Below, in pieces: positions 7,962 to 12,037 of a stretch of 64,000 nucleotides of DNA. Numbering within the stretch: the stretch's first letter is position 1; every line of letters begins with the position of its first letter. The notes beneath the pieces are model-generated. The model worked only from the letters and a program-made list of their open reading frames with translations. It did not search any database and was not told where the DNA came from. Both the position numbers and the translations under genes were made by a program. Source of the stretch: Nannocystales bacterium (GTDB lineage: Bacteria; Myxococcota_A; Polyangia; Nannocystales; Nannocystaceae); the NCBI GenBank assembly GCA_050633305.1, contig JBOEGF010000043.1, positions 96,001-160,000 of the forward strand, in the 5' to 3' direction.

Positions 7962-9425
7962 CTATCGCTGTGCCGCGACCCGTCGGTAGTGTAGCGACCC
8001 GCCCCCGCGCTCGAGCACCAACATGGTCGATGCGGCTGTCGTGGTGATGTATGCGGTGGACTGAGGTCGGTCCTTGAAGAAGAACTTCCGGGGGGCGGTG
8101 GGGTGCATGCGCCTGCTCTGTCTGCCTTGGATGTGGAGGCGCAACCCCTCACCCTGCACGAATTCCGTGTCGACCACGCGTAGGGTCGAAAGGGTCTCCG
8201 CGTCGGCGGTGAGCTCGACGTGACGAAGGTCGCTGGGTGTCATCACCCACTGCCCGGCAAACGCGGCGAAGGGCTCGGGATCAAGTGGCACTGGCCGCGC
8301 TTCATCGCGCACGGGAACAGGAAACTCGTACGCCATCTGGGCGACGGCCTCGGCGATCTGGGAGCCGGGAGCGACCTCGGAGTTCGCCAGGTGAATCACG
8401 ACCAAGCCGTCGGAGGGGATGAGCAACACGCCGTGTTCGTGGCCGTCGAAGAGTCCCACCCAGCCGTACGCATCGCGTCCCGCGATGGTGGTGGGGGCGA
8501 ATCCGTATGGTTTGTCGAGGTCGTTGTTGCCGAACATGCGGCGACTAAGCTCGGCGCCGTAGGTCTCGTTGAGCAGGGCTGCGTACAGCTTGCCCAGGTC
8601 GGTCGCGGTCGAGGTCCAGCCTCCGGCGGCGCCCAAGGACGCGGGGGTGGCTTCAACGACCGGCTCGAGGTGTTCGTCCGGATGAAAGGACAGCCCGACG
8701 GATGCCCCCGGCTGTCGTCCGAACTTGGTGTGCTCCATGCCCAGAGGACCCAAGACCCGGGTCTGCACAACATCGGCATAGGGCTGCTCGGTGACCTCTT
8801 CGAGCAGCAGCCCGAGCAACGCCGCGTTGGACAAGCTCGGCGCGAAGTCGGTGCCCGGGTCGAACTCCAGGGGGTCGCCTGCGAAGGAGGTGACCAACGC
8901 CTTGTGGGTGGCCGCGCGTCGCTTGTAGACCCGCTCGAACAACATCGTCTCGGTGAAGTTGGGCAGCCCGCTGGTCATGGTCAGCAGGTGTTCCACCGTG
9001 ATGGATGGCTGCAGTCCCAGGTCCGGAATGTGGGTGGCCACCGCGTCGTCCAACGCGAGGTCTCCGCTGCGCACGAGGTCGAGCACCGCGACGTGGGTGA
9101 GGTGGACGGAGAGCGTGCCGATCTCGAAGGCGTCGTCCTCTCCGTGCGCGGTTTCTTGGGCGAGATCCCGAAGCCCCCAAGACTGCTGATACAGGGTCTC
9201 CCCCTCCGCGAACACGGCGGTGGTGCCATGGACCCGGAACGTCGGCCACTGCTTGCCCCATCCGGCGACGTAGGTGCTCAGCGATTGGGCGAAGTCGTCC
9301 GGCAAGGTGAAGGCCGCGGGTTCTTCGACGGGGGCTGCGGCGGGGGAGGGAGGGCGGGACTCTCCGGCGCACGCAGAGGCCGCGACGGCGAGGATGAGGA
9401 CGAGGGGGCGGGCGGACATCGGCAT
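7962..9425 (-). CDS. Serine hydrolase / beta-lactamase class C-like lipoprotein, probably catalytically atypical
   Basis: Lipobox ASAC. Motifs FEIGTLS, ITVEHLLTMTSGLP, FDPGTDF, LGPLGMEHT, AGGWTSTATDL. Confidence 0.8.
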   Translation of the reverse strand: MPMSARPLVLILAVAASACAGESRPPSPAAAPVEEPAAFTLPDDFAQSLSTYVAGWGKQWPTFRVHGTTAVFAEGETLYQQSWGLRDLAQETAHGEDDAFEIGTLSVHLTHVAVLDLVRSGDLALDDAVATHIPDLGLQPSITVEHLLTMTSGLPNFTETMLFERVYKRRAATHKALVTSFAGDPLEFDPGTDFAPSLSNAALLGLLLEEVTEQPYADVVQTRVLGPLGMEHTKFGRQPGASVGLSFHPDEHLEPVVEATPASLGAAGGWTSTATDLGKLYAALLNETYGAELSRRMFGNNDLDKPYGFAPTTIAGRDAYGWVGLFDGHEHGVLLIPSDGLVVIHLANSEVAPGSQIAEAVAQMAYEFPVPVRDEARPVPLDPEPFAAFAGQWVMTPSDLRHVELTADAETLSTLRVVDTEFVQGEGLRLHIQGRQSRRMHPTAPRKFFFKDRPQSTAYITTTAASTMLVLERGGGSLHYRRVAAQR

Positions 9426-9752
9426 CGCTACGCACCGGGCGGAGGCGGAAACGTTCCCGGCTCCTACATCGACACACCGGGAGGTTCGAAGGTTCGATGC
9501 CGACAGCGGCGCGACGCACGAAGCGCCAAGGACGGGCTCGAACCTGCAGATCGGGCTCGCCGGAATGGGGGCAGACCACGGTTTGGCGGACGTTTTCAGG
9601 CTCGCCAACTCGTCGCTGGAGGAAGCTGTCCGGAAAACGAAACGCATCGAGCCTGCCGGCGTTGTTCGAGTACCCTCGTGCTCCGGTTCGTGAACGCCGC
9701 TTCGAAGTTGGCCGGGGTGTCGGTCCCCTATGACGTGGAACTCCCCGAAATC

Positions 9753-10457
9753 ATGAACAGTCCGCCCCTCTTCTCACTCTTCTGTGCCGCTGTCGCGGTG
9801 GCATCGGCATGCGCTCCTGCGCCGCAAATGCCCGCCGAGGCGCCTTCACCGTCGGCCACTGCGTCGGGGACACCATCCCAGCCGGCCGGTGATCCCGACG
9901 CCCCTCGCTACAAGCCCAGCTCGTCGAGCGCGAACGCGGTGGACATCACGACGAACGCTTATGGGGCGTATGGTGCCGCTCCCGATGCGCCCGAGATCGG
10001 CGATCGCGTCGAGGACTTCACACTCCCGCTCGCCGACGGCGGGACGTTCGACCTGGCACAGGCACGCTCAGCTGGCCCGGTGTTGGTGATGTTCTATCGG
10101 GGCTTTTGGTGACCCGCTTGCAACACGCAGCTCGGCGAGCTGCAAAGTTCCATGTCGGAGTTCGACGCCCGAGGCGTCACGGTCGTCGCGTTGAGCGTCG
10201 ATGCTCCCGAGGTTTCGCTTCCGTGGGTCGAGAAAAAAGGGTTCACATTTCCGGTCGCCTGCGACTCCAAGCTGGAGGTCATCCGCGCGTGGGGCCTGGA
10301 GAACACGGACGTTGGCGACCTGTCGCTGCACGCGGTGGTTCTGCTCGACCCTGACGGGACCGTCTTCTATCGAAAGATCGCGCGGCGGCGCGCCTACCCG
10401 CCCGAGTTCCTCGACGCGATCGACTATCGACAACAGAAACTCGCGGCGCCCGGGTAG
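9753..10457 (+). CDS. Peroxiredoxin-like (AhpC/TSA redoxin) lipoprotein with in-frame TGA at 10110-10112; probable selenoprotein (UxxC)
   Basis: ATG 9753 is in frame with the TGA and with the 10152-10457 ORF. Read-through gives IGDRVEDFTLP...VLVMFYRGFW-U-PACNTQLGEL...VVALSVD...FTFPVACDS...VVLLDPDGTV, a complete thioredoxin fold. Lipobox ASAC. Confidence 0.88.
10113..10147 (+). promoter_or_regulatory. Putative bacterial SECIS element
   Basis: Perfect 7-bp stem GCAGCTC (10127-10133) / GAGCTGC (10137-10143) with a G-starting loop GGC, beginning 21 nt after the UGA. Confidence 0.72.
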
Positions 10458-10510
10458 CGGTTCGCGAGTTGGGGTTGGCGGCGGGAGCTCTAGACCCCCG
10501 CTGCCGCCTG

Positions 10511-11557
10511 TCATGTCCGCAGGTCGCCGAACTCGCGGGGGGTCGCCTGCGCGCGCGCGGCCCCAGGCGAGAGGCCGAAGACCCGCTTGAATGCCCGACA
10601 GAACGCCGCCTCGGAGCCGTATCCGAACCGCGTCGCGACGCAGGCCAGGGGCTCCGTTGTTGTCTGCAGGTGCGTACGTGCGAGATTGAGCCGCCACGCG
10701 GTCAGGTAGCGCATGGGGGACTCGTCGAGCAGCTCGGTGAAGCGAGCCGAGAACGCCGAGCGTGACATGCCGGCCTGCGCGGCCAAGCCGGCGACGCTCC
10801 AGTCCTCCTGTGGGTCGCGGTGGATTGCAGCGAGTGCTCGCCCGATCTGCGGGTCACGCAATGCCGCCAACCACCCTCGATCGGCATCCGGAGAGGTCGC
10901 GAGCCACCTGCGGATCGCCTGGATGACGAGGACATCTGCGAGGCGGGTCACGACGGTTTCTCCGCCGGGGCGCATGGTTTTGGCCTCGCGGGTGATCAGC
11001 TGCAGGGTGCTGTGCAGCCAGGCTCCCGACTCGTCGTCCCAACCATCGACGGAGAGCACGGGCGGCAGGAGGTCGACGAGTCGATGCGCCGCGACGTGGT
11101 CGAAGCGGACCACGCCGTACGTCGCTTCGGTCACAGCACCGCCGCCACCCCAACGCAGCGTTTCATAGCGGTCGGTGATCGCTTGCACGGGCAGTTCGGA
11201 CAGCTCGACCGTGCGCGCGCGTCGGTCGCTGCGCAGGCGATGGGGGGTGCCGTGGGGGATGAGGGTGAGGCTCCCCGGACCCAGTTCCGCGGGCTCGACC
11301 CCGGCCATCTCGAGCCAGCATCCGCCCGCGGTGAGAATGACAAAGGTCATCATCCCCGGGAACGCCGGGATCGCGATGCCCCAGGGTGCGGAGAGTTCCG
11401 AGCGGCAGTACAAGGTGCCCGTCATCCGCAGCTGATGCAGGGTCTCGCCGAGCGGATCGGACCGATGGGGCGGTGGAGTGCGCGATCGAGACACGGAGAC
11501 GCCTGCAGCGTCGCAGAGGACAGGCTCGTCGTCCAACGGATTGGACGATGGGTACAT
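10511..11557 (-). CDS. AraC family transcriptional regulator (cupin + HTH, RclR-like)
   Basis: DPLGETL, APWGI, RLADVLVIQAIR, GWLAALRDPQIGRAL, WSVAGLA..AGMSRSAF, GYGSEAAFCRAFKR. Confidence 0.93.
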   Translation of the reverse strand: MYPSSNPLDDEPVLCDAAGVSVSRSRTPPPHRSDPLGETLHQLRMTGTLYCRSELSAPWGIAIPAFPGMMTFVILTAGGCWLEMAGVEPAELGPGSLTLIPHGTPHRLRSDRRARTVELSELPVQAITDRYETLRWGGGGAVTEATYGVVRFDHVAAHRLVDLLPPVLSVDGWDDESGAWLHSTLQLITREAKTMRPGGETVVTRLADVLVIQAIRRWLATSPDADRGWLAALRDPQIGRALAAIHRDPQEDWSVAGLAAQAGMSRSAFSARFTELLDESPMRYLTAWRLNLARTHLQTTTEPLACVATRFGYGSEAAFCRAFKRVFGLSPGAARAQATPREFGDLRT

Positions 11558-11614
11558 CGATGCGGATGTGTGGTCGTTGCCGGCCGCGCATGCGCAACGC
11601 ATCTTCCACCTACG

Positions 11615-12037
11615 ATGAACGGGTCCAAGATACTGACCATCATTCTCCTCGGCTCTGGGATTCTCGGTACGTGTGTTGGAGCCGGCTTGCTCCTGGTACC
11701 GGAGATGTTCCATGCGAGCAGTGGTATCGAGATCGGCGGGAACGTCAGTCTGCTCAGCGAGACCAGGGCGCCCGGCGGCGCCTTGTTGGCCATCGGGGCA
11801 CTCATCACCGCGGGGGCTTTCGTGCGTCATCTTCGTTTCACCGCCACGGTCTTGGCGACTGTGGTGTATCTGTCCTACGGCCTTGGCCGGGTGTTGAGCA
11901 TGTTGGTGGACGGACTGCCTTCGAGCATCCTCGTGCAGGCGGCCATCCTCGAGCTGGTCATCGGTGGGGTTTGCCTGGCTGCACTCCTGCGCTACCGACC
12001 CGGGCCCACGGGACATCACTCGACGGCCAAGGGATAG
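11615..12037 (+). CDS. Small 4-TM membrane protein (DUF4345-like)
   Basis: LLSETRAPGG and YGLGRVLSMLVDGLP motifs. Divergent from the AraC gene. Confidence 0.75.
   Translation: MNGSKILTIILLGSGILGTCVGAGLLLVPEMFHASSGIEIGGNVSLLSETRAPGGALLAIGALITAGAFVRHLRFTATVLATVVYLSYGLGRVLSMLVDGLPSSILVQAAILELVIGGVCLAALLRYRPGPTGHHSTAKG

Follow-up and report, generated by a model that had tools for sequence, protein, structure and literature searches.

The frame at 9753–10457 (+) of the window (the whole 64,000-nucleotide stretch of Nannocystales DNA analysed here) is a genuine, if hidden, gene for a selenoprotein of an already known class; judged from its sequence, the product is a member of the 'Prx-like' UxxC class (PF00578, GOS 'Prx-like 1'). 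The internal stop codon at 10110–10112 is taken to encode selenocysteine (Sec), with a probability of about 0.97. The product falls in a clade in which a His residue occupies the column of the thioredoxin-fold cis-proline, and this apparently undescribed His-variant clade is the part of the finding worth following. The features of the gene are as follows.

9753..10457, +: full coding sequence, 234 aa, Sec at 120, TAG stop (frame reading; PF00578 match)
9753..9812, +: lipoprotein-type signal peptide with candidate lipid-acceptor Cys20 (codon 9810–9812; invariant in 17/17)
9813..9902, +: Pro/Ala/Ser-rich variable tether, residues 21–50 (poorly conserved; pLDDT 60–79)
9909..9965, +: clade N-terminal arm YKPSS...DITTNAYG, predicted ordered (Y70/G71 invariant; pLDDT 92–93 for residues 51–70; also in the long form L078)
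9987..10445, +: Prx/BCP-like thioredoxin-fold domain (match to BcpB 5epf; Foldseek E 9e-14)
10110..10112, +: in-frame TGA read as Sec120, first position of UPAC (TGA in 18/18 and 9/9 clade loci)
10119..10121, +: Cys123, second UxxC position, facing the peroxidatic Cys of Prx (TGC in 18/18; 2cx3 alignment)
10127..10143, +: bacterial SECIS upper stem-loop, 7 bp, GGC loop at 10134–10136 (folding, covariation, fit to the bSECIS model)
10329..10331, +: His193, at the column of the cis-Pro (Trx/CcmG) or the catalytic Arg (Prx) (alignments)
10368..10391, +: basic clade motif YRKIARRR (Y206, K208, A210, R211, R212 and R213 invariant in 17/17)

Reading frame, UGA codon and SECIS hairpin

The gene forms a single frame of 234 codons whose sole internal TGA lies within FYRGFW*PACNTQL, which reads U120-P-A-C123 when the codon is decoded as Sec. 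A plain ORF caller ends the upstream frame at 10112 and finds a new start at ATG 10152, and the public protein collection stores the two halves separately (P0002 and P0219). A preliminary description of this DNA had placed both halves in one frame and proposed a 234-aa selenoprotein; the frame does read through the TGA, and the selenoprotein is borne out by the machinery genes, the conserved TGA and the covarying hairpin. The atcATG start at 9753 is common to this gene and two same-genus orthologues. An upstream GTG start, used in database entry P0002, was rejected because the orthologues share the 9753 start, with the signal directly after it. The restart ATG at 10152 was found in only 3 of 18 orthologues, indicating that the second half is no gene of its own. 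No sigma-70 promoter or terminator match was detected within 9350–10600.

A homologue at E 1e-10 was present in 41 of 60 related genomes. The best 17 loci (17 genomes, the source genome G000 included) form a close group together with locus L067, and TGA occupies the column in all 18 of these, which are kin rather than independent sequences. Among the at least 80 loci of a metagenome scan, which was no census and in which one scan pattern required Cys, the best nine belong to the clade and carry TGA (9/9), and the 71 loci with a Cys codon at the column all lie outside it. Sec120 aligns with the Cys of the Cys homologues, and one Cys orthologue was found (P0051, with CPPC). The Cys/UGA pairing that the preliminary description had proposed to look for at this column is therefore seen, with TGA in the clade and Cys in P0051 and the non-clade loci, and its concern that the TGA might be unique to one strain, beside homologues that always have Cys, is contradicted by TGA in 27 clade loci. 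In a phylum-wide sample (251 genomes, 11 candidates scored in each), the clade was found only in G000 and G015; four other loci read in that sample are of the Pro type.

The hairpin GCAGCTC-GGC-GAGCTGC places its loop 21 nt after the TGA, and with its 3-nt GGC loop, this spacing and 7 bp it fits the bacterial SECIS model as given in PMC13188914. RNA folding, one of the checks suggested earlier, returned the stem in the MFE and centroid structures of all four stretches folded, but folding energy alone was not significant: the 51-nt stretch gave z −1.52, with 16 of 200 shuffles equally good, and the 101-nt stretch z +0.45, so the hairpin is not singled out by energy. Its position is rare, a comparable stem-loop (stem of at least 7 Watson-Crick pairs, G-first 3-nt loop, same distance range) following 292 of the 229,020 TGA triplets in the genome (0.13%); under looser loop rules, 1,826 (0.8%) qualify. 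Across the 27 TGA loci, 92.1% of hairpin cells pair, compared with 16–53% in slid controls, and three pairs are changed on both sides. Of 500 shuffles, none reached the observed pairing and covariation, 18 matched the number of covarying pairs and 118 the pair types. A coupled Leu-to-Ile and Glu-to-Asp swap preserves the stem in L029 and L067, and RNAalifold recovers the same stem unaided, with 6 pairs. Among the matches listed, at least 6 of the 7 pairs are kept in 35 of 36 distinct TGA loci versus 4 of 68 Cys loci, a gap of which part is relatedness because the TGA loci are the query's closer kin. In codons +1 to +11 synonymous identity reaches 0.77, compared with 0.50 upstream, 0.71 in the last six codons ahead of the TGA and 0.59 downstream, GC-biased two-fold codons inflating these values somewhat. 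By these comparisons the hairpin is under selection, and the earlier claim of a 7-bp hairpin just 3' of the TGA is strengthened by its conservation with covariation.

The source genome (11.0 Mb, 66% GC, 92% complete) encodes the complete Sec machinery that the preliminary description had suggested looking for, all four genes scoring above curated cut-offs: selA (397 bits vs 268), selB (265–296 bits vs 242), tRNA-Sec, selC (67 vs 47) and selD (366 bits vs 125). Among the 60 relatives, selA is present in 16 of the 17 clade-carrying genomes; the exception, G001, is 77% complete and has tRNA-Sec. The selD gene carries an in-frame TGA of its own (G000 C4:134092), followed by a hairpin weaker than those of most other candidates (4 Watson-Crick pairs by our own rule); since it fails our strict stem rule, hairpin strength is no uniform marker. 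Screening by coding score and hairpin, with the output read by eye, yielded at least 13 selenoprotein candidates in the genome: FdhA, SelD, GPx, DsbA-like, AhpD-like, ArsC-like, SelL-like, three Prx-like and three TlpA-like domains, the last on long proteins. In an NCBIfam scan of nine candidates, eight matched a redox family at E 1e-12 and four passed a cut-off. The inventory is a lower bound because the first filter missed the query gene itself. Plesiocystis pacifica was already known as a Sec user, with six selenoproteins according to a 2016 survey (PMC5029168), compared with the at least 13 candidates here, several of which have export signals. The three TlpA-like candidates (L158, L159 and L160; G000 C18:115685, C5:196987 and C5:195152) each carry their TlpA-like UxxC domain at the C-terminus, preceded by an Ig-like (ASH/HYDIN) domain, and each has a GTT-loop hairpin; two of the three loci are 1.8 kb apart.

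Could the TGA instead be a true stop, a sequencing error or a pseudogene lesion, with the halves separate or dead? This is very improbable and close to refuted. Database entries do give the clade as halves only, since the 120 short matches listed of 144 comprise 56 that stop at RGxW and 64 C-halves, with no match running across the UGA site, and the codon is covered by no read set from the source strain. However, the identical codon recurs in 27 loci with identities as low as about 40%, both halves are conserved, the hairpin covaries, the restart Met is unconserved and the Sec machinery is complete. As to sequencing reads, run X1 holds a near-identical contig that begins at 10115 and so ends short of the codon, and relatives' contigs in X2 (DNA) and X3 (an RNA library, about 85% alike) cross it, showing no unassigned A>C or A>T change able to fall on 10112, which is weak evidence; the RNA-library contig is no demonstration of expression.

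Fold, active site and the His-variant clade

The PF00578 match covers residues 82–206 (102 bits vs a cut-off of 26, E 2e-29). The predicted model (pLDDT 88.3) superposes on BcpB (5epf) with Z 22.3 and rmsd 1.7 Å over 150 residues (narrower VIA search). Alignment with PrxQ (2cx3) places Sec120 opposite the Ser/Thr of the Prx motif, Cys123 opposite the peroxidatic Cys and His193 opposite the catalytic Arg, and the BCP paralogue L054 agrees, having Arg at the His193 column. Thioredoxins and CcmG proteins have their cis-proline at this one column, and peroxiredoxins their Arg (PMC2757866). The Prx motif PxxxT/SxxC(U) is absent, with Sec at the Thr/Ser column and the motif Pro missing. In the NCBIfam scan no family reached its cut-off, the best being ResA (54 vs 170 bits), and no PF02630 (Sco1/SenC) match was obtained for the protein at E 0.001. 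Because U120 stands at the Thr/Ser, C123 at the peroxidatic Cys and His193 at the Arg, the protein is best described as a redoxin of the UxxC kind built on a Prx-like scaffold; by motif it is no peroxiredoxin. The preliminary description of a peroxiredoxin-like protein with UGA at the catalytic position thus holds for the PF00578 fold and for the first CxxC position, but the codon is not at the peroxidatic position, and an assignment as a true peroxiredoxin fails on the missing Thr and Arg.

The His substitution, which the earlier reading overlooked, marks a clade. In 106 distinct homologous rows the cis-Pro column holds His in 27, Pro in 74 (L041 among them), Ala in four and a gap in one; among non-clade rows it is Pro in 74 of 79. 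In a quick tree, which took 71 of the 106 rows by omitting every other Cys row, all 27 His rows group on a single branch (SH-aLRT 97), and 26 of them have TGA. The Cys form is nested within the His branch at the end of a long branch, which makes a loss of Sec likely, though not certain. Wherever a stored protein carries the motif [YF]xK[VI][AG]xRR (136 proteins, counting kin and duplicates), His lies 13 residues before the motif. UPACN and the ordered N-terminal arm are also shared by the clade. As read from these sequences, the clade consists of Nannocystaceae lipoproteins and longer forms labelled Gammaproteobacteria; its members would nearly always contain Sec, would be exported in both the short and the long form, and appear in databases split at the UGA. 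No description of the clade was found in the literature searched, which was mainly open, and RefSeq-based selenoprotein lists may hold members.

The long form L078 has TGA and 374 aa, with a signal lacking a lipobox (by eye) and a C-terminal domain of 170 aa; its database relatives are labelled Gammaproteobacteria or Pseudomonadota. The C-terminal domain (L078:611-1126) is predicted to be all-helical (pLDDT 89.3) and is common to about 45 database proteins. It gave no Pfam family, no Atlas match and no Foldseek match at E 0.001, only generic helical hairpins with Z 8.1 or less, and therefore offers no functional hint. An Atlas search with P0051 returned generic AhpC/TSA clusters only. Two kinds of relatives were seen besides the clade proper. 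A membrane-anchored Prx-like paralogue of the Pro type (L045:1660-1672, in G043) has two in-frame TGAs giving U-P-F-U (UxxU), with a hairpin in the same register as that of the query. L048:1453-2100 (in G019) and P0149 are clade-like lipoproteins that lack UxxC and the His and keep YRKxGGR and a four-Cys tail; these are possibly catalytically dead paralogues.

Envelope location and possible function

The protein is very likely exported, and is probably a lipoprotein, as judged from its N-terminus and those of its relatives. The ASAC lipobox and Pro-rich linker noted in the preliminary description are both present, and Cys20 is invariant in 17 of 17 loci while the surrounding signal diverges, which makes lipoprotein export likely. 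A lipobox-like Cys (by our own rule) occurs in 53 of the 56 N-halves among the 120 database matches listed of 144, and the three that lack it have truncated starts. The query signal itself has Ala and not Leu at −3 and no Lys or Arg before the hydrophobic stretch, unlike the 51 of 53 relatives with K/R in the signal peptide among the N-halves listed. The +2 residue in the N-halves listed is Ala in 32, Gly in 12, Ser in four, Thr in three, Glu in one and Arg in one, and never Asp or Lys, residues that at +2 are reported as inner-membrane signals in E. coli and Myxococcus xanthus (PMC3222651). This makes the outer membrane more likely than the inner one, as a default guess and not a result. The genome contains four lgt, three lspA and one DsbD_TM (DsbD/CcdA domain) matches. 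The C-terminal tail of one subgroup of the clade has four Cys, a feature in keeping with an oxidising compartment. Such a location, called unusual in the preliminary description, is not: NCBIfam NF041057 is a '(seleno)lipoprotein' family, exported selenoproteins are already known, and selenoprotein forms of lipoprotein families have been described for the SAO system (10.1101/2022.07.06.499078). Two further lipoprotein-type candidates lie in the same genome, one DsbA-like with UPFC (L161:427-1266, G000 C32:274059; NF041057 102 bits vs a cut-off of 190) and one Prx-like of the Pro type with UPHC (L050:1390-1953, G000 C5:271923).

The protein is more likely than not an envelope selenol/thiol-disulfide oxidoreductase. 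Selenocysteine would be inserted at codon 120 by SelB sitting on the hairpin that follows the UGA, and the protein would be exported by Sec, lipidated at Cys20 and flexibly tethered on the periplasmic side of the envelope. The Sec120 selenolate would then attack an oxidised sulfur (disulfide or sulfenic acid) of an envelope substrate, Cys123 would resolve the mixed bond to give an Se-S ring, and a DsbD/CcdA-type membrane protein would re-reduce the ring. His193, Arg116 and the YRKIARRR patch may tune the selenolate and select an anionic substrate. In favour of such an oxidoreductase are the UxxC at the CxxC position, the missing Prx Thr and Arg, and Arg116, which lies four residues before the CxxC as in PRXL2B (PMC12938796); against it, the fold is closest to BCP/AhpE peroxiredoxins and the ResA/TlpA score is far below its cut-off. 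In thioredoxins and CcmG-type reductases the cis-proline is more conserved than the CxxC and is part of the substrate-binding site (PMC2757866), and its loss here weakens a classical protein-disulfide reductase reading. Of the selenium-based envelope redox chemistry proposed earlier, the lipoprotein signal and the UxxC redoxin stand, without the unusual location.

Two other functions were weighed. The protein is unlikely to be a selenium-dependent envelope peroxidase of PRXL2/SelL type, in which Sec120 would reduce H2O2, lipid hydroperoxides or endoperoxides directly, Cys123 would resolve and His193 would replace the Prx arginine. The top structural matches are all peroxiredoxins (Z 22; narrower VIA search), a basic residue occupies the Prx Arg column, the Arg at −4 is shared with PRXL2B (PMC12938796), and there is a weak match to the SelL-related NF040769 (51 bits). 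However, the cut-off of that family (120) is not reached, the TxxU motif of Sec peroxiredoxins puts Sec at the peroxidatic position (PMC13188914) whereas the query has Sec at the Thr position and lacks the motif Pro, and the genome already has a separate Sec-GPx and a SelL-like candidate. It is quite doubtful, and argued by analogy, that the protein handles metals through a putative Sec120-Cys123-His193 site (Cu, Ni, Zn or Hg), in a Sco-like role as chaperone, sensor or metal-coupled reductase. A 2007 study reportedly proposed that the cis-proline of the thioredoxin fold keeps metals off the CxxC site. His stands at this column in 136 of 136 clade proteins versus Pro in 74 of 79 non-clade rows, and the genome's Sco paralogues have a His on the same strand entry. 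A divergent HupE/UreJ-family gene lies beside the clade gene in 5 of 25 loci, but it is confined to one subgroup and may be plain synteny. Sco proteins, moreover, have CxxxC, and their His precedes the position of His193 by two residues (judged from the sequences; pairwise alignments were poor), which makes the metal reading an analogy and not a membership; the query has no PF02630 match, and the genome has four Sco matches of its own. For the clade as a whole, a set of exported selenoproteins in which the protective cis-proline was replaced by His to create a Sec-Cys-His metal site is a speculative and improbable reading by the same analogy. If true, marine myxobacteria and gammaproteobacteria would have in their envelope a selenium-based equivalent of Sco-type metal chaperones or sensors, a family hidden by databases that cut nearly every member at the UGA.

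Gene context is consistent with kinship: no conserved operon was found among 25 clade loci, neighbours following relatedness, and no redox partner gene lies nearby in any clade locus examined. A divergent PF00144 serine hydrolase (7962–about 9420, −) adjoins the gene in 10 of the 25 loci, within the genus; it has a lipoprotein-like start and scores far under class C beta-lactamase cut-offs. On the other side, 10511–12037 holds an AraC/Cupin_6 regulator (RclR-like, 118 bits vs a cut-off of 400) and a divergent DUF4345 gene, at a place taken in five related loci by an ECF sigma factor pair, indicative of a recent local change.

Relation to known redoxins and selenoproteins

What distinguishes the protein from its nearest known systems? 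BCP/PrxQ and AhpE (5epf, 1xxu, 2cx3) have the same fold (Z about 22, rmsd 1.5–1.7 Å over 150 residues) at 22–24% identity, but in the query the motif Pro and Thr/Ser are replaced, Arg has become His, and the protein is predicted to be exported. ResA, TlpA and CcmG resemble it as membrane-tethered CxxC redoxins, whereas the query falls far under the 170-bit cut-off, lacks the cis-Pro, contains Sec and has no cytochrome maturation genes nearby. The PRXL2/SelL-related proteins (NF040769) share the Prx-like fold, the C/UxxC and, in PRXL2B, the Arg at −4; the query stays below their cut-off (51 vs 120 bits), and PRXL2B keeps the column proline (PMC12938796). The conserved His of Sco proteins is a copper ligand. 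Sco1/SenC proteins (PF02630), for which 'copper ion binding' is given in PMC2757866, are likewise membrane-anchored, exported thioredoxin folds with two chalcogen residues and a conserved His, but have CxxxC instead of UxxC, a His offset by two residues and no Pfam match to the query.

The closest relation is to the 'Prx-like thiol:disulfide oxidoreductase' family (PF00578, UxxC/UxxU), listed as a high-confidence predicted selenoprotein family (PMC13188914), and to the 225 'Prx-like 1' sequences of the GOS study (PMC2398784). The query gene adds a further member to a predicted selenoprotein class of experimentally uncharacterised function. Of greater weight is the clade, which offers a natural experiment on the thioredoxin-fold cis-proline and a way to probe what role selenium plays in the envelope. 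UPACN and QLGELQ had no occurrence in the four GOS supplementary files searched (PMC2398784). With GOS Prx-like 1 the query shares PF00578, UxxC and an in-frame SECIS, and the sequence file of that study holds YRGHWU 24 times and YRGFWU 22 times (PMC2398784); it differs in having His for Pro, the YRKxARRR motif, the ordered N-terminal arm and a probable lipoprotein anchor.
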